A stretch of 64,000 nucleotides of DNA from Bilabrum cf. latius (Eukaryota), in contig OZ237738.1 in assembly GCA_965178125.1 (NCBI GenBank), positions 1,550,001-1,614,000 on the forward strand, written 5' to 3'. Shown here piece by piece: positions 26 through 63,755 of the stretch. A model generated the notes under the pieces. That model did no database searches. It saw only the letters and a list, made by a program, of their open reading frames with translations, and had not been told where the DNA came from. Position 1 is the stretch's first letter; every line of letters starts with the position of its first letter. The position numbers and the translations under genes are program-made.

Positions 26-1231
26 TCACGCAGTCTCGTTCCAAGCCCAGGGCCTCGTCGGGTCCGGCCTCCCCGCCGCGTGCTGCTGCAGCACTGCCAG
101 TAGCTCCAGGGCCGCCTCCTTGGGCTGGTAGTCCACGTCAAAGGGGAGCGGGTACTGGTCCGTCCCCAGCCATGTGCGCCTGTCCGTGAATCCCCACGCG
201 ATGAACGCGTTGCAGCCGGGCCCCTTGCCCGGCTCGCTGGCCTTGGCCGCCAGGCACGCCGTGAGCGCGTCCCCGTATACCTTGGCTTGCTTCTCCCTCT
301 CTTTCTGGTTCTCGGCCCCGGGCCCGCACTTGGGGCAGCGCACGTCCATCTCTGTGATCTGCGAGGCCAGGCCCATGGCGGCGAGCTGCTTTAGGTTCGC
401 GAGCACCTCCTGCGGGTTGCGCGGCTGGTCCACCGTGACGTGCATCTGCAGCCCCACGCCGTCGATGGGGATGCCCTTGGCCTGCATGTCCTTCACGTAC
501 TCCACCTGCCGCTGGGACTTGTACGAGTCGGCCTGCTCCGCGCCGTAGTCGTTCACGAACAGAGCCAGGGCCGGCCAGCCGTCGGGGGTCTGCCGGCCCA
601 GCCCCGCGGCATCGCGCGCGGCCCCCGCCGCCTGGAATGCCACGTGGACGTAATCGGGGAGCTTGGGGTACCAGGTGTTGTTCTTCAGGTCTGCGTGCGC
701 CGGCCAGCACTGCTCGGTGCTCTGGCAGAACGGCTCGTTGACCACGTCCGTCACGAAGGGGATCTGGCCGACCGAATGGATCATCTCCGTCACGTGCTGT
801 GTGAGGGCCTGCTTCAGCTCCGCGCCGTCGAGGTTCTTGAGCCAGTCAGGGTTGTAGCTACCCCAGCAGAGATTGTGCAATCGGACATTCCCTTGCATGA
901 TGTCGTGCGACCACTTCTAGCTGTATGAACACTCAGTGGTGTTTAGGGCCGCCGGGGGCGGCAGCGGCTGCGTCTCTTGCCACTTGCAGCCGTTGCCCAG
1001 CACCGTCGTGTCGAACTACGTTTTCAATGTGTACTCATACATGGGATCGGACTAGTTCACCATGAACTTGTAGTTGTGCTCGGCGCCAATATAGATCCCA
1101 GCAGCGAGCGCCGCTTCGCGCAGCGTTTGGTTCATTTTCTGCAGACCGACATGCTTGTACAGCAGCTCTGCAGTACTGGTTCCAAGTGTGCTAAGAACGA
1201 ATGCCGCAGCAGCAGCTGTTGAGACCTTCAT
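26..1231 (-). CDS. Secreted glycoside hydrolase family 10 (endo-xylanase-like), ~401 aa, 3 in-frame TAG
   Basis: ORFs 1052..1318 and 26..898 share one frame broken only by TAG. Signal-peptide-like start MKVSTAAAAAFVLS. GH10 motifs *FDTTVLGNGCKW, RLHNLCW, DVVNEP (acid/base Glu), LFVNDY, PIDGVGLQMH, QITEMDV (nucleophile Glu). Ends at TGA. Confidence 0.85.
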
Positions 1232-1349
1232 TGAACCAATTTTTGCCGCAGTTGCACCTTGGTGCATCCCAAGCAGCCTGCTGAGCGTGACGATGACGCG
1301 CCTTGGATCCACACACACACACTACACTGTCGCCCACGAAGCACTCGCA

Positions 1350-1481
1350 ATGATGCGACCCATGATGCACAATACTCGCTGGTCTGGACATCATCTGCCT
1401 CGATAGGTTCGCAGCTATTCCGCATGTACGTGTGCTACAAACGTGCCTACCGTACACCAAATCAATCATCGTCGTTCGTGA
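1350..1481 (+). pseudogene. Truncated, diverged 5' remnant of the coiled-coil gene found at 2365 and 4182
   Basis: MMRPMMHNTRWSGHHLPR*VR aligns with MMRAAKHTRWFGHHLSR*VR of the downstream copies, including the same TAG position, then runs into the duplicated NIPBL 3' fragment. Confidence 0.5.
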
Positions 1482-2079
1482 GATCGAGAGGCACCGACTG
1501 GGTCCCTTCAATGCCCTCCACGGCCTCCCTCACCCTGGCCTGCGCGCGAGCAGCGGCCCCGCGCTGAGGCCGGGAGGCCCTTGCGGCGGCAGCCACGCTG
1601 GCGCTGACACCTCCATCATGTTCGCCCTCGGAGCCGTTGCCATCATTATCATCGTGGTCCTCGTCTTCATCGTCTTCATCGCTGTCCACCCACTGCGCCT
1701 GCCTCTTGCGCCCCTTGCCCCTGCCCCTGCCCGTCGACCTGCCGCCCCTGCCACTGCCCCTGCCCCTGCTCCTGCCCCTGCCCCTGCCCCTGCCCCTGCC
1801 CCTGGAGCTGCGGAGCTTGCTGGCAGCCTTGCGGCGGCTGGCGGGCTTGCGAGAGGCGCCGCGCCCTCCCGCTCCCTTCCTTGCGGAACCGGGCGCCCCG
1901 GCCCCACCCATCGCACCAAGCGACACGGGCAACTCGGCGGCCCCATCGGCCCGGGCCAGCCGCAGGCAGGCACGAGCCAGACGAGCGGCCTCTGCGACTG
2001 GAGAGAACTGGCACCAGGGTGCTTCGCCACTCGTCACGCCGCAATCGGAGACGCTGCACCCCGCCTCGTCCACACAGGC
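1462..2079 (-). pseudogene. Duplicated 3' fragment of NIPBL (copy 1)
   Basis: Encodes ACVDEAGCSV...LDLTNDDD*, matching the last ~200 codons of the gene ending at 5201; upstream NIPBL sequence is absent. Confidence 0.75.
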
Positions 2080-2364
2080 CAGACGAGGAACATATGGCCG
2101 GTCCCACATGCTACCAGCTGGCAAAGCTTGTTCCGGAATATCGAACCTTCCATGAGGCGTCTGGCGCGCCTCCCGCCGTGCTTGCCGCTCGGACGAAAAG
2201 TTTAGACTGTCGAAGCATGGCATGCCAATTCCCACAGCCCAGGACCGGTAGAAGCCCGGAGCCAGGGCTCGAGGTTTCGAGGTTCCGGCGGTGCAAGCGC
2301 GGCGCCAGCAAGTCGGCGTCTTGCGACTCGGTGCGCAGGAAGTGTTTTTCGCGAAACACTTGCC

Positions 2365-3081
2365 ATGATGCGAGCCGCGAAGCATACTCGCTGGTTTGGA
2401 CATCATCTGTCTCGCTAGGTTCGCATCGTTCCTGCACTGAGTGCCACATGCGTTGAAAACATTGTTACCGACCCTCATGCAGCGGTGCACACTTCCAGTG
2501 CAGCTTTAGGGGTTCAAGCAGACCTAGAGGCAATTGCAGCTAAGTCTTCTGCTTTCTGGACAGGCCTGGCTCTACTGGGTGCTGGGGGTGGTGCAGTGCT
2601 CATCGCGGTTGGAATTCGCGATTACGCGGTGGACCAGAAGCAGACTGAGATACAAAAACTGGAAACGAAGCTGGAGAGCAAAATGAACGAGAATACAGCC
2701 CGTATCGAGAATCGCATGGACAAGATGGAGTGGAAGCTTGACCACAAGCTGGACAAGATGGAGTGGAAGCTTGACCACAAGCTGGACAAGATGGAGTGGA
2801 AGCTTGACCACAAGCTGGACAAGATGGAGTGGTAGCTTGACCACAAGCTGGACAAGATGGAGTGGAAGCTGGACAAGATGGAGTGGAAGCTTGACCACAA
2901 GATGGACATGGTGCTGAGCATTCTTGCGATGCAGGCATCATCAGCTGGAAGGCTCGGCACTCCTCCTGCCGCCGGGACGGATGGTGTATCCACGGATAGT
3001 CCAAATCCTGGCAGTGGGGGTGGAAGTGCGGGCGGAGCTGACGTTAATCCCGAAGAGGATGGGCGCGATGGCAGGGTATGA
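2365..3081 (+). CDS. Single-TM coiled-coil protein with 11-residue repeats (DKMEWKLDHKL), possible mitochondrial presequence; copy 1
   Basis: Open from ATG 2365 to TGA 3081 with 2 TAG. Arg-rich N-terminus lacking acidic residues, hydrophobic FWTGLALLGAGGGAVLIAVGI, 33-nt tandem repeats. Copy 2 is 21 nt longer, preserving frame. Confidence 0.65.
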
Positions 3082-3329
3082 CAGTAGGGAGTCGTGAACA
3101 GGTGAACGTGGTTCACGAGTCGAGCCGGGTTGTTGTGTGTTGTTGAGTTGTTGAACAGATTACTAATGGATTTGCACGTACTGTTAGGCGTCACGAAGCC
3201 GCTGTTGATTTTCCTCCATCCATGCCACCCCACCGCAAGTTGAAAAGTTGACGGTGATGGCCGAGGCTACGCAATGGATGGCTCAGGCTGCGCCGAGAAT
3301 CGGAATTCTGTTGACTGGCGTATACCAAA

Positions 3330-3896
3330 TCAATCATCGTCGTTCGTGAGATCAAGGGGCACCGACTGGGTCCCTTCAATGCCCTCCACGGCCTCCCTCA
3401 CCCTGGCCTGCGCGCGAGCAGCGGCCCCGCGCTGAGGCCGGGAGGCCCTTGCGGCGGCAGCCACGCTGGCGCTGACACCTCCATCATGATCGCCCTCGGA
3501 GCCGTTGCCATCATTATCATCGTGGTCCTCGTCTTCATCGTCTTCATCGCTGTCCGCCCACTGCGCCTGCCTCTTGCGCCCCTTGCCCCTGCCCCTGCCC
3601 CTGCCCCTGCCCCTGCCCCTGGAGCTGCGGGGCTTGCTGGCAGCCTTGCGGCGGCTGGCGGGCTTGCGAGAGGCGCCGCGCCCTCCCGCTCCCTTCCTTG
3701 CGGAACCGGGCGCCCCGGCCCCACCCATCGCACCAAGCGACACGGGCAACTCGGCGGCCCCATCGGCCCGGGCCAGCCGCAGGCAGGCACGAGCCAGACG
3801 AGCGGCCTCTGCGACTGGAGAGAACTGGCCCCGGGGTGCTTCGCCACTCGTCACGCCGCAATCGGAGACGCTGCATCCCGCCTCGTCCACACAGGC
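3330..3896 (-). pseudogene. Duplicated 3' fragment of NIPBL (copy 2)
   Basis: Same as copy 1 but with a shorter (GGGGCA)n Arg-Gly tract. Confidence 0.75.
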
Positions 3897-4181
3897 CAGA
3901 CGAGGAACATATGGCCGGTCCCACATGCCACCAGCTGGCAAAGCTTGTTCCGGAATATTGAACCTTCCATGAGGCGTCTGGCGCGCCTCCCGCCGTGCTT
4001 GCCGCTCGGACGAAAAGTTTAGACTGTCGAAGCATGGCATGCCAATTCCCACAGCCCAGGACCGGTAGAAGCCCGGAGCCAGGGCTCGAGGTTTCGAGGT
4101 TCCGGCGGTGCAAGCGCGGCGCCAGCAAGTCGGCGTCTTTCGACTCGGTGCGCAGGAAGTGTTTTTCGCGAAACACTTGCC

Positions 4182-4919
4182 ATGATGCGAGCCGCGAAGC
4201 ATACTCGCTGGTTTGGACATCATCTGTCTCGCTAGGCTCGCATCGTTCCTGCATATACGTGGTTAACAAGGCACCTGAGTGCCACATGCGTAGTAAACAG
4301 TGTTTCCGACCCTCATGCAGCGGTGCACACTTCCAGTGCAGCTTTAGGGGTTCAAGCAGACCTAGAGGCAATTGCAGCTAAGTCTTCTGCTTTCTGGACA
4401 GGCCTGGCTCTACTGGGTGCTGGGGGCGGTGCAGTGCTCATCGCGGTTGGAATTCGCGATTACGCGGTGGACCACAAGCAGACTGAGATACAAAAACTGG
4501 AAACGAAGCTGGAGAGCAAAATGAACAAGAATACAGCCCGTATCGAGAATCGCATGGACAAGATGGAGTAGAAGCTTGACCACAAGCTGGATAAGATGGA
4601 GTGGAAGCTTGACCACAAGCTGGACAAGATGGAGTGGAAGCTTGACCACAAGCTGGACAAGATGGAGTGGAAGCTTGACCACAAGCTGGACAAGATGGAG
4701 TGGAAGCTGGACAAGATGGAGTAGAAGCTTGACCACAAGATGGACATGGTGCTGAGCATTCTTGCGATGCAGGCATCATCAGCTGGAAGGGTCGGCACTC
4801 CTCCTGCCGCCGGGACGGATGGTGTATCCACGGATAGTCCAAATCCTGGCAGTGGGGGTGGAAGTGCGGGCGGAGCTGACGTTAATCCCGAAGAGGATGG
4901 GCGCGATGGCAGGGTATGA
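4182..4919 (+). CDS. Single-TM hendecad coiled-coil protein, copy 2
   Basis: Paralog of 2365..3081; ATG 4182 to TGA 4919 with 3 in-frame TAG. Confidence 0.65.
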
Positions 4920-4974
4920 CAGTAGGGAGTCGTGCACAGGTGAACGTCACGGTGGCTCACGAGTCGAGTCGAGC

Positions 4975-5200: not shown

Positions 5201-8200
5201 TCAATCATCGTCGTTCGTGAGATCAAGGGGCACCGACTGGGTCCCTTCGGTGCCCTCCACGGCCTCCCTCACCCTGGCCTGCGCGCGAGCAGCGGCCCCG
5301 CGCTGAGGCCGGGAGGCCCTTGCGGCGGCAGCCACGCTGGCGCTGACACCTCCATCATGTTCGCCTTCGGAGCCGTTGCCATCATTATCATCATGGTCCT
5401 CGTCTTCATCGTCTTCATCGCTGTCCGCCCGCTGCGCCTGCCTCTTGCGCCCCTTGCCCCTGCCCCTGCCCGTCGACCTGCCGCCCCTGCCCCTGCCCCT
5501 GCCCCTGCCCCTGCCCCTGCCCCTGCCCCTCGAGCTGCGGGGCTTGCTGGCAGCCTTGCGGCGGCTGGCGGGCTTGCGAGAGGCGCCGCGCCCTCCCGCT
5601 CCCTTCCTTGCGGAACCGGGCGCCCCGGCCCCACCCATCGCACCAAGCGACACGGGCAACTCGGCGGCCCCATCGGCCCGGGCCAGCCGCAGGCAGGCAC
5701 GAGCCAGACGAGCGGCCTCTGCGACTGGAGGGAACTGGCCTCGGGGTGCTTCGCCACTCGTCACGCCGCAATCGGAGACGCTGCACCCCGCCTCGTCCAC
5801 ACAGGCGGGCAGCTCCTCCGCCGCCAGCGCCAGCGCGACTTGGAAGGAGGGCAGGGGCCCGCCCCCTCTGATCCTAGGGGTCTCGTTGGCCGACGTGGCC
5901 GGACCCCTGGCCCCCCTGCCCCCTCTCGGGGGCACGAATGCCTCGATCTTCTTCTGGCTCAGGTCGTAGGCTCTGCGCAGGGCATCCCTGGCCCTCGCCA
6001 GGACGCACAGCTCGGAGCATTCCAGCACAAGTGCCCAGGCGCGGCGCCGGGCTGCAGCGCTCCCTGCCGCGACATGTGCCTTGCCTCTCGCGCGAGCCGC
6101 ACCCGGCGCGCCGCTGCCCCCCTGCAGCGAGTCCATGTCCAGCGGTGGCGAGCCCATGGTGTCCGTGAGCATGAGCTCCTCTCTCACCAGCGAGGAGACA
6201 CCCCCTTCATCCCCACCGTCCTCGTCCTCCTCCTCATCGCCCCCTTCACCCTCCATAGCAACCTGCTCCTGGGCACCTGCCCCGGCAGCCGCTGGCGGCT
6301 CCTCTTCGTCGTCGGCGTCATCGCCCGGTCCGCGCGGGGGCAGCTCATGCCCAGCCCTCCCAGCCTCGGCCTTGGCCAGCCGCAGCAGTGCGCGAGGGGC
6401 CAGCTCGCCGCGCCTCGCCAGCCGCTCGGACGCCGCCCGCACGGCCAGCAGGACGGCCTCCTCAGTGTCCAGGGGCAGGGAGGCCAGTGCCTCGCCCACG
6501 AAGCGGAGGAAGCTGCGGCGGTGCCTCTGCACCCGGGCGCTCGCAAGAGCCGCGGCCTGCTGCGGGGGCAGTGCCAGCTACCTGGCGATCCTCTGTATGG
6601 CCGCCTCTGCGGGGCAGGGCACGGCCCTCGAGTCAAGCAAGGACATGACACCACGGACAGTGGCATCTCTCAGACGAGGAGCCCCCTGCCGCAGGCACTC
6701 GGCCCAGAGGGTGGTGGTGAGTGCTGGCCGAGGCAGGCGGGCAGAGGCCTCCCCCGCCCGACTGGCGGTCGCCACGGCGCGGGCCCTCCTCGCTGCGAGC
6801 TCGTCTTGCTGCTGCTGCTGCTGCTGCTGCTTGTGGTTGGACCCGTTGCCACCGTCCTGGGCTTCTCCTGATCCAGCCGCAGATGCTGTGCCTGCAGCGG
6901 AGACGGCACCGGCGGTCCGATCAGCCTCTCCGGCCAGCGTCTGCGAGGCAAAAAAGGCCTCCAGCTCAAGGGGTGCCGGGCTCGGGGGTAGGCCGGGAGT
7001 CCCCGCGGGGCCCGTCGCCGCCAGCTGCATCGTGGGCTCCACCGCGGTCGAAGCGCCCATGTGCAGCATCTGCAGGGCGAAGCCGTCCACCATCCCGCGG
7101 GTGAGTCCATTCCAGACTGCGTGCGGGTGCTTCTGCGTGATGCGGGCGCACACCTTGGAGGCCTGGGCACGGGCGCGCTTCTGCCGCCGCAGTGCCACTT
7201 GCCACTCCTGCGCCCTGCGCGCCTCGTGCTGCTGCCGCTGTACCAGAGCCTGCTGCTGCTGATGCTGCTGCTGCTGGGTGCTTCCATCGCTGGGTGCCGG
7301 AGGAGAAGGCACGGCCGCGGGTGGGGGCGGCAGCACGAACTGCAGGGCGCACAGGGGCGCCGCGGCTTCCTCTGGCCCCGCCACACCCTGCGACAGGGCC
7401 TCATCCACCAGGTTGAGAGCTGCCTGACGGATGGCATGCCTCGAGTCGAAGAGCATCCCCCGTAGCAAGGGAAGGTGCTTCTGCACGCAGCCCAGCAGCA
7501 CAGAAACGTCTCTGTCTCCCAGCGCCATCACGGCGGCGTGGGTGGGACCCGTGCCACTCGAGGACGAGGACGCGGACGAGGACGAGGACGAGGGTGCTGC
7601 TGCTGGAGCCCCTGCCCCCCCTGCCCCCTGCCTGGCAGCGAGCCCCTGCTTGGCCCTCTCGTCGTGCGCCCGCAGCAGCTCCAGGAAGCCCACGAGCACA
7701 GTCCGCCGGAGGGTAGGGTCCCTGTGCCCCGCCGCGTGCTCCACGAGACGCTCGGCCGCGGGGGCCAGCACAGCCCGGGGGCACTGTGCCCCGAGGAACA
7801 AGAGGCCGCGGAGGCACCGGGCCTGCAGGGTGGGGTCGGGCACGGCCGTCCACGACAGCAGCATGGCTCCCACCGCCTCGTGGGCGGAGGAGGGGCGCAG
7901 CGCAAGGTCCACGGGCGCATTGGCCAGTCCCGCGAGAGGGGGGCCATCCAGCGGGTCGCCATACCCCGCCCCACCAAAGGCCCTGGAGCGGGGCGAGCCC
8001 TGTCCGTCGGCAGGGGCGCTGCCCTAGCGCGAATTCGCCCCGGCAATGCGCCCCGGCCTGCCCTCCGCACCCCCGTGCATGGGGGGCTGCCCCCCTGGCG
8101 GCGTGCCCCGCGAGCCCTCGCCGCCACTTCCCTCGTCGTCCTCGTACTGCTCCTCGTCCCCGATCGGGTCCTCGTCTCGCCCCGCATCCCCCCCATCTCC

Positions 8201-11200
8201 AAGGCCCAGCCTGCTTGCCAGCTTGATGCCTGCTCCAGCAGAAGAAGGGATCACACCATCCCCACCCCTGCCCGCCGCAGACTTGACCGGGGTGCCCACC
8301 CCGTGCCCCTCCTCGCTCGGCCCCTGCCCACCCCCGGTGCCTACCCCCGGGCCATCGTCGGGCAGGTCAAACCGCACGAAGCGGCACAGCAGGCCCACCC
8401 CGTACAGAGCCACCTGCACCCCCCTGTGCATCTCCACCCGCTGCCGCAGCCCCTTGGTCCAGATGCGGCGCACCTCGGCGAGGATCTGCCTGCGCCTCTG
8501 AGGGCTGCCGGCCGCCTTCTGCAGCGCGGCCTGGTTCCGCTTCCGCAGCAGCTCTTCGGCTGCCCTTGCCTCCTGCAGGGCCCGCCACCACTGCGTCAGC
8601 ATGCCCCGGGCCCAGCCGCGGAGGGAGCGCGCCGTGTTCCCTGCCGCGGGTCCGGCCGATACCGGGCTGGCCCCAGGCATGGGCGATCCGGGGGCCGCGT
8701 CACTGGCCACGTCACCGCCGGCGGCCTTGCCTCCTCCCGCCTGTTCCCCCGCGCCATCTCCTCCCATTTCCACCCCGTCCTCCTCCTTGGGCTCGGGTTC
8801 CTCGATGCCCAGCAGCTCCCGGGCCGCTCGCGCAGAGGTGGGGTACTCCGCTGGGAACGCGTCCGAGGCGAGCACGGCTGCACCCAGCAGAGCCGCGGAT
8901 GCCTCCATGAGGGCGGGCTGCATGGAGCCGTGCAGCAGGGCGTGCACCTCCAGCACGCAGCCAGCTAGCACCTCCCGGGCGGGCGGGTGCCACTGCTGGA
9001 GCAGCGTGGCGAGCGTCAGGCAGGCGCGGTGCTGCAGTCGCCAGGTGAGCGAGCGCCACCCGTCCGGTGGGCTGGCAGCGCCGCTGGCCGTGGGACCCTC
9101 CTCGGTTGTTGTCTGTGGAGTCCTCAGCAAAGCCAAGATGGCTCTCACGTGGGGCATGACCAGCCGCGCGTCAGCCTCCGCAAGGATCTGCAGGGCCGCA
9201 GCTGCACCCCCGGCCTGCTCCCAGCGCCAGAGGGACAGGCCCTCCTGCGTGCTCTCCTCCTCGCTGCGGGGGTCCTCTGCCGATGCGGCCGTGGCGGCAG
9301 CTGCAGAGGCTCCCTTGGCCATGGCCGCGCTGCGCCGCTGCACCCTTCTCAGCTGAGACACCTCGATGACCGCCGATGTCAGCTCTCCCCCGTCGGCCGG
9401 CTTGGCGCGGGAGACACCGAGTCGTAGGGCGTGCAGCCAGCGCACCAGGGAGCTCGCGAGTGCCGATGCCTGCGCCCATGCAGAGTCCAGGCCTGTCCCG
9501 TCCGGCCCTGCATCCATGGCTGCCTCCGCAGTGGCTGCCTGGTCGTCAGCGTCTTGCGGGGGGGAGGAGGGTCCTCCCGACTCGTCTTCCTTGGGGTCCT
9601 GCATGGGTGGCTGGTGCTGCTGGTGCTGCTGGTGCTGCTTGGACTGCCGGGCCTGCAAGCTGCGCCCCCGGCTGCCCGACCCCGCCCCCGCCCTGCGCCT
9701 GCCTGATCCAGGGCCTCTCGATGACGAGGAGGGGGACGGGGATGGGGCGGGCAAGGTGGAGGACGAGGAGGAGAGCTTCCCATTGCCCGTGCCTGGGGGC
9801 CCCTCTGCTGCCGCCCTCTCCACCAGCCGGACCAGGGAGGACCTGAGCCACCCAAGGTCTGCCCCTTCCCCTATGGACCGGGAGCCGCAGGACCGCAGGC
9901 AGCGGGCAGCCACCGCGGCGATCTCCGCGGCGCGGGCGTCCACCTCCCTGACGGCCGCCAGCGCCTCTGAGGTGGGGCCGGTGGACGAGGCCGGCTACCG
10001 GCGCGATCCCTTGCCCCTCGCACGGACGCTCCCTGCGGCCGCCCTGGCGGCGTTGCTGGGCGGGGCTCCCCAGATGGCGTCAAAGGTGGCGGCCACGTCG
10101 GCGTGCACAGAGTCCTCCTCCTCCTCGTCCGAGGCCAGGCGCATGAGGGCCTGCAGGGCTTGCAGCCGGTGCGAGCGGCTCTCCGCCGCCTGTTTCTGGG
10201 ACTTGACTCCGCCCTTGGCCTGCAGTCGGGACAGCGCGCCCGCCGACAGGGCGCCAGCAGAGAGCGCCCCCCTCAGGATGGCGATGGCCGCCCTCCGCAC
10301 ACTCACCCCATCGTCCTGCAGGCGGGACAGGATCGGGCCCAGGTAGGCCTTGAGCGTGCCCTGACCATGGGCCTGGGCCTAGGCCCCTTGCTCCTGTGCC
10401 CCATGCTCACTCTCATCGCCGCCCTCCTGTTCCCCAGCACGCCTGGCCTCTTCCGCCACGCAGTCGCCCACCACTGCGAGCGCCTCCGCGCGCACGGACC
10501 GGCCGGCATCCGAGAAGCACGAGCTGACCGCAGCTCTAACCCGCTCATCAGATAGCACGGATGCGTCACCCTGGGCTACGCTCCGCAGTGCCCTGAGGGC
10601 GTGCTGCTTGACCTTGGCCCCTCCCGCCTGGAAGCTTGCCAGCAGCTGGTGCAGCATGGAGGCTGCGGCGGTTGCCATGGGACCGCACGAGGCGTCCTGC
10701 GATAGGTGGGAACAAAATGAATCGTACGAGGCGACACTGTCAGAGTACCATGCATCAGCAACCCTCCGCGGATTGAAGGCAAGGCACCAGAATGCAATGC
10801 TTGCAAACAAAAAAAGCTGCGCTACCGACTGCGAGGATTGAACTCGCGACCCCCAGTTTACAAGACTGGTGCTCTACCACTGAGCTAAACCGGCGTCATC
10901 CATCGTCGCGAATACAAAAAATACAATAAAAGGAAAATCAGCCGCAATACTCACATGCCACGAGAACGCGAAGACGGCTCGCTCGCATGCAACCTGGCAT
11001 CCGCGGCGCTGCATCGGGGCAACCTTTGCAATCGTCCATTCAGCCTCCCATAGGCTCCTGTGAAATCAGAGTAGTCATGAAGCAGGACTCGGGTCCTCGG
11101 TGAAGACGGCAATGAGAGCGGAGGAGTCGACCTTGAACAATCTCACAACTCAGTGTCAGAATCGGCTGCCATGGCATCATGCATCCACTGAGCTAGCCAG

Positions 11201-48918: not shown

Positions 48919-49111
48919 TTTTCTACTTAAAAGACAATTTGAAATCCGCAACGTACTCCACGCAATCGAATTGACTCGATTCTACCGAAAGACCGCGTGA
49001 TACATCCAAATCTGGTCGCCCCGAGCTGCCAACAGCGAAAATAGCGAATGATCCGGAGTAGCACTAAACGCTCTTGCCGAAGGCACAGGTAGAAAGTCGC
49101 GGGCGGGAAGC

Positions 49112-49387: not shown

Positions 49388-49509
49388 CAGCTCCTAAAAG
49401 TGTTAATGGACAAACTATTCCAGGAGTCTTATTCATGACAGGAGTCTTCTAAATGATACCATGAGAAATTTACACAACAGAACGCCCCCAAGCAGGCCAA
49501 GCGTGCAGC

Positions 49510-51797
49510 TCACCCGATCAGCTGGCGGCTCGAATCCGACACGGTTGTACCGGCGGCACTGTCGATCCGTTCGAGCGCCTCCGGCCGCAATTCCCTCTGG
49601 CTTAGCACGTTACGAGAGGACGTCGCCCTGGACTGATGCCTAAGCTTGCTGATTCGCTCCCATTCCGCCCCTCCCACCGCCGCCTCCACGACCCTCTCCT
49701 CCGTGGGCCCGATCGCGACTGCCTTGGAGGCCGCATGTGCCATGGCATGCGCCACCGACGTGATAGCCACTGGCTTAAACCGGAGACACATGGCCAGGGC
49801 AGCGCTCACCGCTAGTCCTTCCCCCAGCAGGCTGTTGGTCCAGTCCTGCCGCCACGACAGCTGCGTCAGCTGCACGATGAAGAACACGGTGGGCGCCAGC
49901 AAGAAGGCGAGCACGGCGGATCGCAGCCATGCATACCCGTACACGCTCTCCATGTACAGGGCCGCCTCGTCTGCCCACTGGGGATAGTCTCCCAGCACCC
50001 CCCGCAGGGTGGTCACGGAGAAATTGATGGTCACCAGCACGCCCAGCATCGTCAGGCTCTGAACCACGTACACGCCCAGGCTGAGCCCAACGCAGGAAGA
50101 AGCCAGCGGGTCGCAGCTCAGCGTGGCAGCGGCAATAGAGAAGTGCAGTATGGCCGCAATGAGCACGCCCAGCCACGTGCGCCACTATAGGTCAACGGAT
50201 ATGATGCGCCAGCCCAACCCCAGCAGCAGCATGGCCACCATCATGACCGTGTCGCCCAGCCGCCACACCAGCACGGCCACGGTGCGCCTCCATCCCTTGG
50301 CCTCACCCGTCTCGCCCCAGTGCTCGAATTGCCCCGCTCGCAGCCCGGCGCCCACGCCCCGCAGCAGTACTGCCATCAGGATCACCACATGCATTCGTGT
50401 GATGAGTGCACCCACCACGGGCAGCGCCTGAGGCCCCTCCCCCTCCCCTTCCCCATCCGCCTGCTGCTCCTGCTGCCCTCCCTACCCCTAGTCCTAGCCC
50501 TAGCTGCTTCCCCCTTCGCCCGACTCTCCCTACCCTTCAGAACCCTACGTGCCCTCCCCTGCCCCGCTAGCCGGGCCGGACCCACCCGAAGCGAGCCCGT
50601 CCGACTCGGCAAGTATCACCCGCCCCTGCCTGCTCTCGGCCAATGGCCTCCTGTCTATGCTACCGCCGCCACTGCCGCCCTCTCCCTCCCCCTCCCCCTC
50701 TCCCTCGCCACCAGCCTCTTCCCCTCCCCCCTGTAAATACCTCCTGGCTACCTTGGCTCGGATCTCCATGGCCTCCATCTGCAGATGGGCAGCCACACCC
50801 ATGCGCCAGTAGCGGTGCACTATGCGCCCCACGTCCAGCCAGCCGCCGGGCCCCAGCAGCAGCCACACCCCGTAGCACGCGCCCAGCACGAGCAGCACAG
50901 CAGAGGACAGCCCATACACGAGCGGCAAAGGAGTCATCTAGAGAGGAAGCCGCCGATGCCGGTCTCCCCACCACCCCCCAGAGGGCCTCTCTACGAGGAT
51001 GCTGCCCCACACCCTGGCACTCTCCTCGTCCGGCGACGGCCGAGACTAGCGAGACAGGCCCCCGCCAGCGAGCGTACTGCGAGGGTCTGGGAGCGGTGTC
51101 GAGCTGGGAGACGGCTGTTCGGACCCGCCGGGCGAAACATTATTGTCCAAAGTGGTCCGATCTTGCCCGGTTGCGTTCTGGCTGCCTGGTGGCAGATAGG
51201 TCCAGTTGAACGGCGGCAGCACGTCCTGGGAGGTCGAGGCCTCCACGCCGCCACAAATAACCACAGAAATAGAAAGTCTATGCTCCTACGGTACGAGCAC
51301 GCTGAATTCGCGCAAGCTCTCTTGGCCTTGCAAACGCTGTGAGGACCGATGGCGTGGAATTGGCGCAACGTTGGGCAGTGATATGCATGCCAAGGGGGCG
51401 GCCAAAGGGGGCTAGAACGACGCCAGTCGCCTTACCAATAATGTTGGAGCTCTACACAGGTATTCTGTGGAAGCTGTTCTAAGAAAGACCTCCTGTAGCA
51501 GATCGAACCACGCAAGAGCAGGGTGTGCGACCAAGGCCACGTTCGCGTCCGGCGGCTGCGGGGCGGGATTGCATGAGAAGTTTGCAGGTAGAATGTGTGT
51601 GCATGCACACTATGATAAGCACCTGCAGCGCTAATCTTCCTTACATCCACTGATATTCTGCCCGAAATAGTCGTTGTCCGCTCTACCCCAAAACTCGACG
51701 CAATCGTAGCATACCCATATCCGCTTCCCCTGACATCAACGTCAATCTGACTATTACAAAGTTGTATCAATAAAAGGAGGTAAACGCTTCCCCGCAT
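49510..51797 (-). CDS. GOST-family seven-TM protein (GPR107/GPR180/TMEM87-like); 5' introns unresolved
   Basis: Signal peptide MRGSVYLLLLIQL, then PLPLVYGL, ITRMHVVILMAVLLR, LLLGLGWRII and further TM segments joined across TAGs. Confidence 0.6.
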
Positions 51798-51917
51798 TTC
51801 CGTTTTTTCGTGGTTCTGAAAAGTCCATGAAGCTTGCAATATCGAACGTTCGAAATCCGGTTTGAATCCTGAAGTAGCGTTGCATTGGAGGAAACAGTTC
51901 ACAAACTGGGTAATAGG

Positions 51918-54900: not shown

Positions 54901-55457
54901 CCATCCGCGCGGTGAACGAGTCCGTTGGAGACCTGAGCGAGCAGGACCTGGAGCTGGCCGAGGAGACGGGTGCGGCCGTGTTCGGCTTCAACCTCAAGGT
55001 GACGCCGTCTCTGCAGAAAGTGGCGGACAAGCTGGGGGTGCGGCTGGCGGCGGACAAGGTCATCTACCGGTTGGTGGAGTCTGCGGCGGAGCACCTGCAA
55101 GCGGTAGTGCCGGCGAAACGGGTGGAGGTGCCTCTGGGCGTGGCCACCGTGAAGGAGGTGTTCGAGATCAACTCGGGGAGGGAGGCCGTGGCAGGATGCA
55201 GGGTGTCCCAGGGAGAGGTGGTGCGGGGGGAGGACACGATGGCGAGGGTGGTGCGCAAGGATGTAGGAGTGGTGTTCGGGGGGGACCTGGGTGTGCCGCT
55301 GGCCTCGCTGCGGGTGCACAAGGACTCGGCCACGAGGGTGGAAGAGGGCACCGAGTGCGGGGTGCAGCTGGACGGGTTCACGAGGTACAGGCCAGGGGAT
55401 CGCATCGAGGTGTTCCGCGTGCAAGAGGAAAAGCTCAAGGTGGACCTGGGCTTCTGA
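51918..55457 (+). CDS. MTIF2: Mitochondrial translation initiation factor IF-2, ~1180 aa
   Basis: RPPVVAVMGHVDHGKTTLLD, EAGGITQ, TFIDTPGH, LVVAAEDGVMPQT, GTECG. One frame from a presequence-like ATG at 51918 to TGA, broken only by TAG. Confidence 0.92.
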
Positions 55458-55622
55458 TCTTGAGACGTGTGTAGTACCGCCAAGCGCGAGTGGTCTCGAT
55501 CGGAGGCGCAGCCTGCCAGCGTGCAGACCGGAACCGAATCGCACATCCGGATACCGGAGTGTTGTTGAGAAACAGAGAGTTGAACAGCAAAGTGTTCAGG
55601 ATGACCTAGCAATGACATCTTT

Positions 55623-58600
55623 ATGAATTATCCACCGCCTTGCTTTGCTCGAACTCTGGAGTAGTTCCTTGGCAAAGGGACCGCGATAGTATCGCTGGCA
55701 CTTGCAGTTGAGCAGAGCAAGGATTCTGTGCCAGGCAGCGCGGCAGATTCCAGAACAGTAGGCGGCGGCACGCAAGAAACAAAATCGCGAAGACATATTG
55801 GGCGGCGAAAACCTGCTATTTCAGATGAACAGTTTGCGAGCTGGCTTGATTCCACGCAGTGCGTTCAAATGCGTACTGTAGATGCTGAATCCAACAGAGT
55901 AGGAGGCAGTGTAGCGAATTCGGTTAGATACGCTGTGGCTGAATCTATATATAGTGACTACATGAACGTGCTTGCGTTCGGATTTGCGGACCGCTCGAAG
56001 AGGAATGTCAAGAAACCGAAGGCAGCAGAAGACGTCTAGGCAAAGTCGGTCAAAGCACATAGTAGGGCAGAGATTGAGGGCGCAATAGAGTCGACACAGC
56101 GAAATTTAGAAGCATCGGGTCCTACCCATGCAGCATCGTGGATAACCGGGTCTTCTATGTGGCGCGAGCTTGCCCGGCGCACACCGCAGCAAGTGCTTCC
56201 GAAGCTGCTGAGTGGTTGGAGTATATTTGAGCCTGTTCAGATACCTGAAGTGTCACCGAAGGATCAAATCAATGAGGACACTATAGCGTTAGGTTTGCGG
56301 TGCCCTGCAGTACAAGTGTGCGGGCCCCCGCTGGCGTGGATGGCACAACACCGATACTCCAGCCGGCCGCCGATACTGCCGCTGTGCCGCACAGCTTCTC
56401 TCAATACTGGAGGGGTGACTGGCGCTGATACCAGTTGTGCTCATGGTTCGCATGCTTGTACAAGTATAGGCATGGCTGCTGCTGTAGAGTGTGTGGCAGA
56501 CTCTAGTGCAGGTGCAGGTGCAGGTGCAGGTGCAGGTGCAGGTGCAGGTGCAGGTGCAGGTGCAGGTGCAGGTGCAGGTGCAGGTGCAGGTGCAGGTGCA
56601 GGTGCAGGTGCAGGTGCAGGTGCAGGTGCAGGTGCAGGTGCAGGTGCAGGTGCAGGTGCAGGTGCTGGTGCTGGTGCTGGTGCTGGTGCTGGTGCAGGTG
56701 CTGGTGCTGGTGCTGGTGCTGGTGCTGGTGCTGGTGCTGGTGCTGGTGCTGGTGCTGGTGCTGGTGCTGGTGCTGGTGCTGGTGCTGGTGCTTGTTCAGT
56801 TGCTGGTGCTGGTGCTTGTTCAGTTGCTGGTGCTTGTTCAGTTGCTGGTGCTTGTTCAGTTGCTGGTGCTGGCGCAGGTCACGCACAGCTCGGCCAATAG
56901 CTAGTAAGCCGAATTTCCTCAGCAACGAATCGCAAGTCCACGGGCCCTGCGGGTCACCAGCGGCTGATCGAGCCCCGCGCATTCATGCATGCTGCTCGCT
57001 TCCGGGCAGCAGCCGGCCTGGACTCGAGCCATATCCTGGTCCGCATGGCCGTCCTCCGTCGGTAGCACATGGAGATGAGCAAAGCTGGCATTCCACTGAC
57101 CAAGGCTGTCCGCTAGCAGCCCGACGCGGGCTCATCGAGAGCACAACAGCATATCCAGGTGCACGTGGACACGCCGCAGGAGATACTGGCACGCAGCATT
57201 TTCGCAGCTGCCCTTCCAACCAGTGATGGAAACCGCTGTCCATTGCCCCGGAGGCTCCGATCCGCCCTCGGTGTGCTCGAGTAGCTAATCTAGCGCGCCG
57301 AGAACTTCCAGGCTGAGGCACCGGGCATGCTTGCCCGGCTGTGCCCTGCCATGCTTGACTCCACCCCGCCCAACAAACTGCCCACGGGGCTCACCGCAGC
57401 ACCGCTTGGCTCGGAAAACACGAGTGCTTCGCAGTTGGAGGCAGGTGCCGGGGCAAGTCGCTTGGGGTCTCCACAGCCAGGATCCAAACGCCGCCTATCA
57501 CGCCACTTCAGTCGAATCGAGTAGCGCCCCGCCAAACGAGCCCGTGTATCGCTGGGCCAGACCCGTGGCAAGGCTATGCTGCGAGCCGGGCTCGAGTCGG
57601 AGTCGCCTGCCCTCGCACTGCAGCCGAGCCAGGTGCAACAGTTCATCTGCCAAGTCATGGCCAAGGTGGTGCCTTCTGTGGCGTGGGGAGGCGGCAAGTG
57701 CAGGTCGTTGCTGTTGCGCCGAGTGGCTGACTTGGTCAAGCTGAACCACCACGATGCTGTTCCCATCGATGCGCTTCTACAGGGGATTCCCACAGATGGA
57801 ATGGACTGGCTAGAAGGTGGACGCTCTGTTCGAGGCCAGGGCCCAGCAGGTGCACTGCTTCATCAGTCCCTCGCTCGGTGCTGGATGTCGTGGCTGCTGC
57901 GCGGGCTCGCCATTCCACTGATCCGGTCACACTTCTACGCAACGGAAGGTGATGGTCAGCGGGGCAGGCTCCTGTTCTATCGCAAATGCGACTGGGCACG
58001 GGTGCAATCTGAAGGTATAGAATCAACGGTACGCAAGCTGCAGCTGCGGCGTTTGGGGGCTAGCAGCAGCGCGATCACTCCTGCCGGTCCACTCAGACGG
58101 TCTTCAACAGCGCCAGCAGCTGGCACTCGACAGCAGTCCGGGCCTGACCTATTCGCGCTACCTGCCCCACCCCTCGGTCTGGCGGTCATGCGACTCGTCC
58201 CCAAGCAGCGGGGCTGGCGGCCAGTGGCGAACCTGGCCAACAAGAGGGCGATCCCTCAGGCCGCACTCACAAGGGATGCAGCAGCTGCAGCCCGGCGGCT
58301 GGGCGCTGGCCATGCCCTCGACCGGTCTTCAAGCCAGCGCAGCGGTGCTGCTCGCAGCCCCCGCTAGAGCACGATGTCCATCAACTCGCAACTGCGGCAG
58401 GCCTACGAAGTTCTCACATCTTTGAGAAGGGGGCACCCGGGGCTGTTTGGCAGCAGCGTGTTCGGGTACCAGGACGCGACGGAGGCCCTCGGTCGGCTGA
58501 GGCAGGGACTACGGGGGACTGGCCCTCAGACAAGGATTGCGGGAGTTGCTGCCGATGTGCAAGCGTGCTATGATTCTATGAAGCACCCTCTTCTGCTTGA

Positions 58601-60908
58601 TGTGATTGCGTCGAGCCTCAGGTCTTTCTTGCAAGGGCCAGAGGATCCAGCTGTGCTGACTGCTACCCGCAGCGGTTCTCCTACTGAGGTAAAGCCCGCA
58701 TCGTCTTTGGCATCGTCATCGTCCTCATCTGCATCAAGTGGTTCAGGAGCGGCGAAGCCATCGGCAATGGCACAAGGTGCATCGACAGGGGGTCAGAGCG
58801 ACGAATCGCCACCAGCCCACACGTGGCGCAAGCTCCCGCTCAGATGGCGACTGGCCCTCAAGCAAGACCCCCTGTCGCCGCAGCAGAAGGCTGTCTGGGA
58901 CAAGCTGCACTCAAAAACAGTTCCGCTCGAGGCGCAAACGCAGCAGGTGCCCGTATCCGTGCGGGCAGTCTCTGTTATTGAGCCCGACATGCGGGGAGGT
59001 GCGCAGCCAGTATGCAGGGTGCGGCAGCGAACCATCGCTGGCCCGTTGTTCGGGCACCGGGCCCTGTCGCCAGGAGCACTGGCAGTGTGGAGGAGCGGGG
59101 GACTGCGTGACGGGGCCATCTTGAGCGACATGCCGCCGCGATGGCCCATCCCGCTATCAAGGACGGCACGAGACATGGATGCACATGCCAGGTCTCACGT
59201 GGTGTCCCTGGGCGGGGCTCTCTTCCACCAGCGGAATGGCGTGCCGCAGGGCTCCGTGGTGAGCACGCTGCTGTGCAACTTATACTATGGGCGCATTGAG
59301 AGGGGTGCTATCCTGCCTCAGATTGCGGAGTGCATGAGGAGAGAGCAGAGCAAGGTGCAAGCGGCCAAGTAGGGGTGGCGTGTAGTGGCGCTGCTAATGA
59401 GACTGACAGATGACTGGCTACTGCTGACGAACTGCCAACCAGTGGCAAACTGCTTCAAGCAACTAGTTGAAAAAGGATATCCTCTCGCTGGTTGTCAATG
59501 CAAGAAGAGCAAAACAGTGGTGGTCTCCGCCGATTACCCTGCCGCCTCCGCCAGGCGATACGGTGCAGCCAGCCGCATTCCGTGGTGCGGGCTGTCCATT
59601 CAATGCGATGGCGGGCTTGGGGTGCGACAGGACTTGCGGCGCCTGGTCGGCGACGAGGCCGCCGCACGGCTGCATAGCAATAGGAGAGAAGACCAAGCGC
59701 GGGCTGCAGTTGCCGGGAATGCCTCTTTACCGGAGGGAATATCGTCTCGCCCCGCTCCTGCCATCGAGGCTTCAACCACGCTGAGCGAAGCGATACTCGG
59801 TGACCCCGCAAGCATGCTGCGCAAGTACGCAGACGGCTACATCAGGCCCTGGAGACGGCCCCTTTTTCTTGATCCCACTGCTCACGGCATCCGGGAGACG
59901 CTACTAAACGCGGGAGAAATTGCCGCGCTGGCGGTGGCAAAGCTGATCGCCATCGTGCGCCGTTGTCCGCATGCAGTCCGCGCACGGGTTGGCAGCGAGC
60001 ACCTGAGCGATGCCATTGTGCACATGGCCGCTGTGCTAGCATCGGTTAGTGAGAAATGCGTCAAACTGCGCAAGGGCCCGCGGTCTGATCATCGCAACGG
60101 ACGGCGGGCGATACCAACCCAGCAGCCGGCTATGGACGATTCTGAAGGGGCCTCAGTTGCCAGCTCGGTGTCCCTGTCAGACGACGTGGCAGAGTAGCAG
60201 GACGGCCAGGAGTAGAACGGCGAAGTCGACCAGCCACCGCAACCGCTGCTACTGTGCGGTGCGCACTTGGCATGGTGCTTCACGACAGGCGACTTGGTGC
60301 CCGCAGTGAGGCTACCATGTGCCAGCAAAGATTCTTCTTCGGCCGCAACCAGCGAGCAACTTGCAGGGTCAGGATCGGAAGCACAGTATGCTGCCGTTCT
60401 AGGAGCAGCCCTGGGCGTCAAGCCGGGCCGCATGAACCGCGAGCTTGCTGCTGCTGCAGTGCATGGCACTTAGGGTGGACCCACTGACCCATAGTCGTTT
60501 CCAGTAGCTGCTGGTATCGGTCCGTCTACTGTTGCTGGTCTCGTGCACAGCGTTGCTACATTTGCCGGTGCAGCTGTGTGCGCGTCAGCTCCACTCCATG
60601 CAGCCCGCAGCGCGCACGGTTTTCTTCTCGCTGCAGGCAAGCACAAGCTCTCCGTGGTCAAGGAGCGCCTGCTGGCGCCCAGTGTGGCCCTTGCCGCTCG
60701 GGAGGACGTCTGCACGGATTTCGTCTGGGCTGTGCGTGCTGCATGTGGGGATGCATCGGAATGTAGCGCAGTCGTGGCGAGCATGCTCTCGGTGGCGGCA
60801 GCAAAGAAGAGAACGCCATCCCAATCAGAAGAAGCAGCAGCAGCATCATCAGCTGCAGAAACCAGCTGTAGGCCCGAGGGACTAGCCCAGTGTATCCGGT
60901 GGACTTGA
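55623..60908 (+). CDS. TERT: Telomerase reverse transcriptase, ~1760 aa, apparently intronless, 14 in-frame TAG
   Basis: All motifs in order in one frame: TEN (NVLAFGF, WRELARR, QVCGPPL), CP (LPRRL..LARLCP), T (FYATE..LLFYRK.DW), 1/2 (RLVPK..GWRPVANL), A (DVQACYDS), B' (GVPQGSVVSTLLCNLYYG), C (LMRLTDDWL), E (PWCGL). Confidence 0.95.
56508..56872 (+). repeat. (GCAGGT)n/(GCTGGT)n hexamer array plus ACSVAG-coding repeats inside TERT
   Basis: About 47 hexamers encoding poly(Ala-Gly), then four GCTTGTTCAGTT-containing units. Confidence 0.95.
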
Positions 60909-60979
60909 CTACACACTGCCGCTTCCAGTCTACCAACCACTTGCATACGTCTAGTCGCACCACAAATTGAGAGCCGGCA

Positions 60980-62008
60980 TCACATCCCAGCAGCCCCCAT
61001 CCTGTAGGCAGCCGCCGACTTGCTCCTCTTGGCCGCCGCCTGCGCCATGACCCTCCGCTCAAACCCGTTGCTGCGATCAACGCCGTCCCATAGGGCCCCG
61101 GGGAGGATCCCAAATCGATTTGGCGGCGGCATTCCCGTCCATCTCCGCTTCAGCTGCGGCCTGGACTGGCTGGAGGCTGCATCACCAGCGCCTGTCTGCA
61201 TGGCCAGCAAGGGCGCCATGGGGTCTTCGGCTCTGACCACCTCTGCGCGGGCCCGCTCCGATGACGCTGTCTCACCAAGCCGCGCCATTCGGATTCCAGA
61301 TCCACTCTAGCCTCCCCCTGCCCCGCCCGTGCCCAACCGCACCTCAACTATGCCCTCCTCGCGGTTGGAAGCAGCCGCCTTGGCTCGCTCCTCCGCCTCC
61401 CGCAGCTGAGCGGCACCAGTTCTTGCCGCAACTGCGCGTGCCCGCTCTTCGGCATCAGCCCTAGCCTTTTCCAACGCTCTGTTCTTTGTAGCGGACTCTA
61501 GATCGATTTTTTTCCCGCTGGCATCACGAAACACGGTTCGTTGGGCTTGATCAGCTGCACTGCTGGGAGGCTGCGACGATGAAGAGTTTGGTCTTACCTC
61601 CTCCTCATCATCATCGGAATCAAATCGAGAGGCAACATTCCCGACAGCGGCGCCGGCAACGCTGTCCTCGTCGCTGTCGAACCTGCTCGCAGGTGCTTGA
61701 ACGGCAGGCTCCTCCTCATCAGAATCAGAGTCAAATCGTGACTGGAGCAAAGTTGCGCTCTTTGATTGCCCTGCTCCGTTTTCCTCATCGTCAGAATCAA
61801 ATCTGCTTGCGGCCTACGTTCCAGATCCTAGTTTTATTGATTCCAACTGCCCTACTCCAATGGAAGCAACATTACTCTGACTACCACGACGTCGCTTACT
61901 CCTCGAGCTAGACGTCGGCTGGACAGACGCCCTCTTCCTCCCAATCTAAATCTGTTCTTCGCCATCCATTCCCAGGGTTGGATGTGTCTGCACCAGCACA
62001 TCCCTCAT
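60980..62008 (-). CDS. BUD13: BUD13/Cwc26 RES-complex splicing factor
   Basis: TVFRDASGKKID, EDPM, PPNRFGILPGALWDGVDRSNGFE and RFDSD repeats; 3 in-frame TAG; start 62008 or 61969. Confidence 0.88.
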
Positions 62009-62102
62009 GACTTGGGACGGATTCGGAGCACACTCGAATCTTCGGGGACGTGGGTTCCACTGCGCTAAACTACAGATTTTCTATTAAACGGTTGATTGAG
62101 GT

Positions 62103-63755
62103 ATGGTTTCTTTATATGCTGGTGTCGATGCCGTGTTGCTTGACATGGATGGGGTTCTGGTGGAGGTCGCTGATTCCTACCGGGCTGCGATCGTAGGGAC
62201 AGCAAAAGAGTTCGGTGTTACAGTCACAATGAAAGATATCGACGCAGCGAAGGCCAAAGGAGGTGCTAATAATGACTGGGTTCTGTCTCGACGGCTCATT
62301 CTTGGCGACGAAAAGGCTGCCGATGCCACATAGACTCCCACGATTGACGACGTCACAGCTGTATTCGAGAGGTTGTACCAGGGGGAAGGCGGCAAGCCTG
62401 GCTTGAAATCGTTGGAATAGCCTCTAGTACCGCGCGCGCTGCTACAGCAGCTCTTGGATCGCACTAGTGGGCGTGTATGCGTAGTTACCGGTCGTCCCCG
62501 CGCGGACTGCGCGGAAGCGATGGCTCGCTTCGGCTGGGACTCCCTCATCCCATCCGAGAGCTGGGTCTGCATGGAAGACGGCCCACCTAAGCCGGACCCA
62601 TTTCCGATCAACCGAGCCCTAGAAATCCTCAGCAAGCGCGGCCCAGCGGCCTTGCTGCCCTCCCGCGTGGCCATGGTTGGAGACACGGTGGATGACGTGG
62701 TGGCGGCCAGGAAGGCCGGAGTGCGGGCCATTGGGGTGCTCACACCTGCTGCTGCGTATGAGGATTCTGGCAAGGAGGGTGCAGCGGGAGGCAAGCAGTC
62801 GGACACTCGATCCATTCTGGAGGGGGAAGGGGCAGAGGCGGTGCTGCTGCCCGGGCTGGCGGGCTTGCCCGAGCTGCTCGAGAGCCGGCCCTCTAGCGGT
62901 GGCATCTTCGAGGGGCAGGGTGGTGGCGATGCCGATGCGGTGCTCCGTGAGTTGCTGGGAGGAGGAGTAGGAGCAGGTGCGGGTCCTGCAGCCAGCGGGG
63001 CGGGGGCTTCCGGTGCGCCCCCACCCCCGCAGCCCCCGGCAGCCGCACTGGCGGGGGCAGGGCCCACAGGAGATCCCGAGAGGACACTGGCCGCCCTGCG
63101 GGTCAGAGCCAAGGCGATCGCAGCCTGCCCGCCGTCAGCTCCCGAGTGGGTGGCCAGGCACGGGTTCGTCCCTCGAGAGGGTTCGTGCACTCGTCACACC
63201 AAGGAGACCAGCATTTCTGCGTGGGTGCGGCTGGACGGGAGCGGCTGGTCAGCAGTCTCGACAGGCCTCGGTTTCCTGGACCACATGATCGGGGCCATGG
63301 CCAAGCACGGGCGCATGGACGTGCAGCTGCTATGCAAGGGGGATCTCTGGATCGACGACCACCACACCGCGGAGGATTGTTCCCTGGCCCTGGGGGAGGC
63401 CATGGACCGGGCCCTCGGTGCCAGGAAGGACATCACGCGGTGGGGCAGCGCCATGTGCCCCCTGGACGAGTCGCTGGCCCGCGCCGTGGTGGACGTGTCC
63501 TCACGGCCCTATGCGCACGTGGCTCTGGATCTGCAGCGGGACAGCGTGGGAGCCATCAGCTGCGAGATGCTGTCCCACTCGCTCGAGTCCCTCCTCACGG
63601 CTGCTCGTCTGACCGCGCACGTGGATGTGCTGCGGGGGTCCAACGACCACCACAAGGCCGAGGCTAGCTTCAAGGCGGTCGGGGTGGCACTCCGCACTGC
63701 CTTCAAGCGAGACGAAGGCGCGGGTGTTCCCAGCACGAAGGGCGTGCTGGCGTAA
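62103..63755 (+). CDS. HIS3: Fusion of a HAD-superfamily phosphatase and imidazoleglycerol-phosphate dehydratase
   Basis: N-terminal LLDMDGVL, VVTGRP, KPDPFP, MVGDTVDD; C-terminal RHTKET, FLDHM, IDDHHTAED, PLDESL, NDHHKAEASFKA, PSTKGVLA. TAG at 62331 and 62418; ends at TAA. Confidence 0.93.

Follow-up and report, generated by a model that had tools for sequence, protein, structure and literature searches.

UAG as a sense codon, most likely for glutamine, in 64 kb of GC-rich DNA of stramenopile affinity

Contig OZ237738.1 contains, between positions 1,550,001 and 1,614,000, a stretch of 64 kb in which gene after gene has TAG triplets in frame. This whole stretch was analysed and is called the window; positions are counted from its first letter. 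It raises the question whether TAG is a codon here and, if so, which amino acid it specifies. A first-pass annotation made from the letters alone had proposed a sense meaning for TAG, with TAA and TGA retained as stops. Our results support this reading, because of the statistics of the open reading frames (ORFs), conserved C-termini that are followed by TGA or TAA, matching contigs from four public sequencing runs, and a related species represented by contig L001. TAG is translated through and evolves as a synonym of the glutamine codons, and TAA and TGA terminate. With good confidence we assign the window to the nuclear genome of a stramenopile that is rich in GC and poor in introns; it would read UAG as sense, most likely as glutamine, and probably use UAA and UGA as its only terminators, the arrangement of NCBI table 15.

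The GC content of the window is 60-69%. Non-overlapping ORFs of at least 300 residues were collected under four codes, and the part of the window that they cover was compared. Coverage is 44% under the standard code and rises to 93% (18 ORFs) when TAG is read as sense, versus 50% with TAA and 67% with TGA as sense. Under the standard code no ORF is longer than 852-853 residues; with TAG as sense the maximum is 2,570 residues, and reading TAA as sense brings no gain in this test. The ORFs gained with TAG as sense have lengths of 2,570, 2,481, 2,151, 1,954, 1,767, 1,483 and 1,194 residues. TGA as a sense codon was rejected: the long ORFs that it produces are other frames or strands of TAG-sense genes, mostly of the most GC-rich gene, and the in-frame TGA of the sulfatase gene described below is intronic, within an inferred intron.

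Codons were counted in 14 gene models, each started at a plausible ATG and together comprising 16,085 codons. These contain 92 TAG, no TAA and no TGA in frame; the rate at which the triplets occur off frame predicts 107, 33.5 and 248, respectively. Thus, TAG is not avoided in frame, and TAA and TGA are absent. The two zeros are partly circular, because the ORFs are defined by their lack of TAA and TGA, and the non-circular part of the count is that such ORFs exist over 93% of the window. The earlier statement that the reconstructed exons hold no in-frame TAA or TGA was borne out, the one TGA seen lying within the inferred sulfatase intron.

A code in which UAA and UAG both encode glutamine (UAR=Gln, table 6) was also considered. 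The ratio of CAA to CAG in the 14 gene models is 115:572, and by analogy about 18 in-frame TAA would be predicted per 92 TAG if TAA were read as glutamine. In-frame TAA, which would mean table 6 if it were common, was looked for and does not occur once among the 16,085 codons, and TAA also terminates genes; table 6 was therefore rejected. When TAG is read as glutamine, it accounts for about 12% of the glutamine codons.

A Pfam search identified GH10, Nipped-B-like, two PBP_like_2 paralogs, fumarase, an HAD phosphatase, mitochondrial-type IF2, TERT, Bud13 and HAD-IGPD. These genes and the other features to which the text refers are as follows:

26-1390, minus strand: GH10 xylanase with a signal peptide (Pfam Glyco_hydro_10, 2.7e-57; PDB alignments), ending in TGA
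5201-11065, minus strand: NIPBL/Nipped-B-like ORF with 5 TAG (weak Pfam matches to Cohesin_HEAT and Nipped-B_C), ending in TGA
11259-15710, minus strand: ORF of 1,483 residues with 10 TAG and no family match in the Pfam search, ending in TGA
15943-18003, minus strand: sulfatase in two exons (Pfam Sulfatase and Sulfatase_C), absent from the first-pass list
19044-26489, plus strand: PBP-A, a giant membrane protein of 2,481 residues with 9 TAG (PBP_like_2, Cys-rich part, transmembrane segments), ending in TGA
26535-28862, plus strand: ORF of 775 residues with 6 TAG and no family match in the Pfam search, ending in TGA
29087-35542, minus strand: PBP-B, a paralog of PBP-A, 2,151 residues with 13 TAG (PBP_like_2), ending in TGA
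38169-45881, minus strand: ORF of 2,570 residues with 20 TAG and no family match (L001 ortholog with 22 TAG), ending in TAA
45952-47677, plus strand: mitochondrial fumarase in two exons, intron 46256-46415 (Pfam Lyase_1, 1.1e-107; PDB, 2.6e-197), ending in TGA
47812-49293, minus strand: HAD phosphatase of the PGP/PDXP type, TAG at ORF residues 104 and 477, ending in TGA
49510-51735, minus strand: membrane protein without family match, introns 51337-51435 and 51556-51644 (splice joints, L001 ortholog), ending in TGA
51873-55457, plus strand: mitochondrial-type IF2, 14 TAG in the ORF, of which 6 follow the ATG at residue 259, ending in TGA
55605-60908, plus strand: TERT with 14 TAG (Pfam Telomerase_RBD, 4.5e-25; PDB), ending in TGA
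60980-62083, minus strand: Bud13 (Pfam), 4 TAG in the ORF, ending in TGA
62100-63755, plus strand: HAD-IGPD fusion (HIS3), TAG at residues 78 and 107, TAA stop at 63753-63755

Conserved genes with in-frame TAG and no frameshift are GH10, fumarase, IF2, TERT, HAD-IGPD and the PBP paralogs. The three TAGs of the GH10 gene (ORF residues 113, 125 and 158) all lie within one Pfam match, and fumarase has a single one (46772-46774, residue 175). The IF2 TAGs at residues 779 and 843 are located between the GTPase and IF-2 domains, the first of them in an insert, and those of TERT at residues 921 and 1256 fall in unaligned inserts between blocks that align to solved TERT structures. One TAG of Bud13 is the first codon of the ORF, and three follow the ATG at residue 39. 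The Pfam and PDB matches, together with these positions, agree with what had been noticed about in-frame TAGs in fumarase, IF2, TERT, HIS3, the NIPBL-like gene and Bud13.

TGA is the stop of 12 of the 14 gene models and TAA that of the other two, HAD-IGPD and the 38169-45881 gene, just as the first-pass annotation had stated. The TGA of fumarase directly follows its conserved C-terminus, and HAD-IGPD ends in PSTKGVLA and then at once in TAA. None of the 14 gene models needs TAG as its stop.

The same pattern is present in a related species. A search with the fumarase found a 95%-identical protein, P0001, and a metagenome scan gave its contig, L001 (10,262 bp, 56% GC), which is syntenic with 41.6-50.4 kb of the window. 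Further relatives, P0002-P0004, are 82% identical in fumarase. The nucleotide identity is 81% for fumarase, 72% for the HAD phosphatase and 67% for the membrane protein; the fumarase values, 95% at the protein and 81% at the DNA level, point to purifying selection. The L001 ortholog of the 2,570-residue gene has an open frame of 1,762 residues with 22 TAG, in which the standard code gives at most 214 residues, and the L001 genes end in TGA, TGA and TAA. The L001 species also needs TAG as sense, and the trait is common to at least two related species.

To which amino acid the TAGs correspond was addressed through codon pairs, taken from the window and its L001 orthologs and from PBP-A and PBP-B at sites where at least 8 of the 14 flanking residues are identical. 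The substitution matrix for the log-likelihoods came from the same 2,339 site pairs. This left 14 good TAG sites, where TAG is paired with CAG (Gln) nine times and with ATC, GAG, AGC, CTG and CAT once each. The log-likelihood is -22.6 for Gln, versus -45.6 for His, -50.9 for Glu, -58.8 for Ser, -61.1 for Leu and -76.5 for Thr. To control for how close codons are by mutation, the non-identical partners of CAG were counted (TAG 9, CAA 5, GAG 4, AAG 4, CGG 2), which implies that TAG behaves as a glutamine synonym in proportion to its use. TAG is not among the partners listed for 180 ACC and ACG codons (the eight commonest partners of each).

Single sites gave a similar picture. The fumarase TAG site is Gln in P0001, and in the C-terminal tandem repeat of the 38169-45881 gene the corresponding codon is CAG in 14 copies and TAG in one. 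When the full library was searched with a part of PBP-B, 242 relatives came up, and the best 150 of them were compared. With the TAG at residue 1197 (31952-31954) masked as X, 55 of the 71 homologs aligned have Gln in its column, as do 31 of the 37 with good flanks; when the TAG is typed as Gln the count becomes 84 of 93, a figure that is biased since typing influences the alignment. Given that TAG is sense, these comparisons make it very likely that it stands for glutamine.

The first rival to be weighed is that TAG is sense but encodes another residue: Thr, Glu, His, Leu or Ser. Several observations speak for it or weigh against glutamine, among them two Thr-dominant columns. The column of HAD-IGPD residue 107 has T 80, S 18, R 10 and Q 2 of 120, and that of IF2 residue 843 has T 68 and Q 1 of 120; both TAGs directly precede a Pro codon. 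Three alignments with 1,459 well-filled columns contain 54 that are Thr-dominant, in 39 of which the query itself has Thr; of the genuine Gln sites 0 of 44 fall in such columns, versus 2 of 4 TAG sites. In its own clade of 12 sequences the HAD-IGPD position varies between residues (T 5, I 2, and R, L, Q, S and V one each), which softens the point without removing it. Moreover, the fumarase TAG column is variable (H 31, T 29, K 19 and Q 3 of 120), GH10 residue 125 is Glu in all four PDB xylanases aligned, and the column of PBP-B residue 1478 has E 5 versus Q 2. Reading TAG in ten ways changes the Pfam score of GH10 by no more than 3.7 bits (His 195.9, Gln 195.4). The frequency of Gln among the residues beside TAG, 0.036 versus 0.068 beside Gln, carries no Gln signal. 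Finally, in the repeat copies of two tandem genes (1366-3081 and 3315-4919) TAG stands twice in place of TGG and once in place of AAG; if TAG is glutamine, these are recent non-synonymous changes. One further site is uninformative: the Gln of the window HAD phosphatase that matches a TAG of L001 aligns with Arg in the PDB match.

Nor would another meaning be without precedent, as codes with UAG=Leu and UAG=Ser are among those described in PMC11687900. Against it stand the log-likelihoods, in which the next best residue after Gln is His, the lack of any ACN partner at the 14 good TAG sites, which concerns Thr, and the conserved Gln column of PBP-B residue 1197. The close comparisons and this column outweigh by far the two Thr columns, which were picked out post hoc. 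We therefore regard another residue as unlikely; the earlier assignment of UAG to glutamine is upheld by the codon pairs and the PBP-B column, with the two Thr-dominant columns as sites that do not fit.

A second rival is an ambiguous code, in which TAG is mostly glutamine and terminates in some contexts, as in context-dependent stop codes. Two C-terminal TAGs, at PBP-B residue 2149, two codons ahead of the TGA, and at HAD phosphatase residue 477, lie shortly before a TGA and would suit such a code. Set against them are the ends of the gene models, all 14 of which are TGA or TAA, and the conserved C-termini of fumarase and HAD-IGPD, which run directly into TGA and TAA; an ambiguous code seems to us quite improbable.

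The third rival is that the TAGs are not codons at all. Contigs from public runs were compared with 40001-56400 of the window, a range that ends before most of TERT and before Bud13 and HAD-IGPD; parts of 40001-46000 have little or no cover in the compared runs. Contigs of four runs, from four studies, match the window, with no listed difference at any TAG in this range. Those of X1 and X6 are unbroken over 47260-56400 and 48008-56400, with zero differences, and each of these two runs covers at least 15 of the 32 in-frame TAGs of the compared stretch. Variants are listed at three places only (41057, 46591 and 46852), none of them at a TAG.

Contigs of X5 and X7 are joined across introns: from 46254 to 46415 in fumarase (160 nt, GT..AG), and from 51336 to 51436 and 51555 to 51645 in the 49510-51735 gene (GT..AG on the minus strand). 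The spliced fumarase ORF regains the N-terminus that is missing from the unspliced one. Because of these joints the X5 and X7 contigs behave as transcripts, and their error-free pieces, which are contigs and not raw reads, cover at least 9 of the 32 in-frame TAGs, all unchanged. TAG is thus present in spliced, transcript-like sequence, neither edited nor spliced out; the RNA nature of these contigs is itself deduced from the splice joints, X5 being labelled 'RNA? (probably DNA)' and X7 not being recorded as RNA.

On these data, neither assembly errors nor introns nor editing account for the TAGs. The genome is intron-poor, not intron-free. Artefacts or dead DNA (assembly errors, pseudogenes, RNA editing or tiny introns under the standard code) are barely credible: three TAGs of one long ORF do lie in introns and neither X5 nor X7 is recorded as RNA, but the contigs of four studies agree at the TAGs, spliced contigs pass through at least nine of them, fumarase is under purifying selection and the L001 relative has the same TAG pattern.

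How UAG could have become a glutamine codon may be proposed by analogy with other UAG=Gln lineages. UAG would be read by a tRNA-Gln whose anticodon is CUA and which probably goes back to tRNA-Gln(CUG), and eRF1 would have lost efficient recognition of UAG and kept that of UAA and UGA; new TAGs could then arise freely, chiefly by C-to-T change of CAG. No tRNA(CUA) is present in the window, whose sole tRNA is a tRNA-Thr(UGU), or in L001, which has no tRNA, and this does not help the proposal. No eRF1 gene is encoded in the 64-kb window.

The DNA is probably that of a stramenopile, a placement that is well supported by its sequence. Every named match that shares the HAD-IGPD fusion comes from a stramenopile, among them oomycetes, brown algae, Nannochloropsis, Cafeteria and Hondaea. 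In the IGPD tree, HAD-IGPD and the 96%-identical P0241 are sister to Cafeteria plus P0253 (91 in the SH-like approximate likelihood ratio test, SH-aLRT), and both groups fall within a clade of 14 rows (100) that is separate from the rows of oomycetes, ochrophytes and the labyrinthulomycete Hondaea. The fumarase tree places the gene in a clade of 30 rows (99) with Cafeteria and ochrophytes. The fusion and the two trees favour the suggestion that the organism is not a ciliate and that its code arose independently. A position near the bicosoecids is suggested tentatively, its basis being these two single-gene trees from a quick search, without ribosomal RNA.

The code variant itself is already known, and the lineage appears to be new. 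The examples given in PMC11687900 for UAG=Gln with UAA and UGA as stops include the fornicate Iotanema spirale, the ciliate Protocruzia tuzeti and two phyllopharyngean ciliate lineages. The same source gives UAG=Leu for an uncultured rhizarian and some phyllopharyngeans, UAG=Ser for Scotinosphaera, and UAR=Gln for many ciliates, some ulvophyte green algae, Hexamita, Streblomastix and Amoeboaphelidium. The summary of known codes in the first-pass annotation (uncoupled UAG-only codes, with Iotanema and some ciliates) agrees with the Discussion of PMC11687900.

The window shares with Iotanema, Protocruzia and the phyllopharyngeans the table 15 pattern, in that UAG alone is reassigned, to glutamine, uncoupled from UAA, and UAA and UGA terminate. 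It differs from these hosts in that it appears to belong to a stramenopile near Cafeteria, not to a ciliate or metamonad, is GC-rich (62%), and has at least two related species sharing the code. With the UAR=Gln codes it has in common that a stop became glutamine, presumably by a tRNA-Gln with a changed anticodon. Unlike in those codes, there is no in-frame TAA, where about 18 would be expected from CAA:CAG and 33.5 from the off-frame rate, and TAA ends genes. The UAG=Leu and UAG=Ser codes resemble it as UAG-only reassignments in a nuclear genome; they differ in the residue, the log-likelihoods here being -61.1 for Leu and -58.8 for Ser versus -22.6 for Gln.

No report of a nuclear UAG reassignment in a stramenopile was found in the literature searched, with subscription journals and supplements outside its scope, so that one may be in print elsewhere. 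We lean, by a little, towards this being the first nuclear code change in stramenopiles: UAG=Gln would have arisen independently, and without a change of UAA, in a GC-rich clade that would be related to bicosoecids and comprise at least two species. High GC should not make TAG rare, and disappearance of the codon would then be hard to invoke as the explanation; the case would point to a route through an ambiguous intermediate, with a suppressor tRNA-Gln and eRF1 in competition. A bolder reading, at the tail of those we entertain, takes the two Thr-dominant sites as a sign that the decoding of UAG depends on site or context. Nuclear UAG-only reassignments are few, and each independent origin is a test of ideas about the uncoupling of UAA and UAG and about the evolution of eRF1 specificity. 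A GC-rich stramenopile case would add a new lineage at the supergroup level.

There are also practical consequences. Gene calling with the standard code fragments these genes, and relatives in the databases are short pieces or start after TAG sites, as exemplified by P0241 and the PBP-B fragments. Among the best 150 of its 242 relatives, those closest to PBP-B are pieces of 89-331 residues, as expected if standard-code calling cut them at TAG. Such fragmented calls mean that annotation of the clade and metagenome binning need table 15. Several public runs, including transcript-like data, contain this DNA, so there may be tractable material. Near-identical DNA of 46000-55900 is present in runs under four organism labels from four studies, at low depth in one of them, and the organism may be carried along in the cultures of others.

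The 49510-51735 gene has seven TAGs after its first ATG, and three others, at positions 35, 42 and 108 of the long ORF, lie in the two introns. Hence, not every TAG of a long ORF is coding, and the earlier tally of TAGs in long ORFs needs to be qualified: some lie in introns or 5' leaders. TAG codons tend to cluster, their frequency being 0.018 beside another TAG versus about 0.005 beside other codons, a difference of 3-4 times. An example is found in the same gene at 50482-50547 (minus strand), which reads S-S-TAG-G-TAG-D-TAG-G-TAG-G-G. Another joint, of 93 nt with GT..AG ends at 49195-49287 on the plus strand, was seen in one X5 contig only; it sits between two minus-strand genes and would need an unannotated plus-strand transcript.

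The two parts of the sulfatase were recognised from adjacent ORFs in the same frame, of which one matches profile positions 2-256 and the other positions 261-300 plus Sulfatase_C. The intron inferred between them (16642-16821, 180 nt) has the ends GTGAGA...AAGCAG, which are GT..AG on the minus strand, the splice sites being read from the sequence, and encloses at 16780-16782 the sole in-frame TGA seen in a gene. A plus-strand ORF at 15922-17796, which lies antisense to the sulfatase and matches no family, is probably spurious.

The NIPBL-like ORF contains in its first part, on the same strand, the intron-less tRNA-Thr(UGU) gene (10823-10894, minus strand). The start of the protein-coding gene must therefore be further downstream, probably near ORF residue 130. 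PBP-A and PBP-B are 59% identical over aligned positions; both have PBP_like_2 at the N-terminus, as well as a Cys-rich part and membrane segments. The tandem genes 1366-3081 and 3315-4919 (plus strand) are near-identical, with 509 of 527 aligned residues the same, and have a C-terminal repeat of 11 residues, DKMEWKLDHKL. Within the TERT frame, 56506-56665 (plus strand) encodes a long Ala-Gly dipeptide repeat, a hexanucleotide repeat at the DNA level. Bud13 is directly upstream of HAD-IGPD on the opposite strand. HAD-IGPD has two parts here; in Cafeteria, P0253 and most of the remaining rows of its clade in the IGPD tree the protein is longer, about 800-930 residues, and in most of them it also contains an aminotransferase domain.

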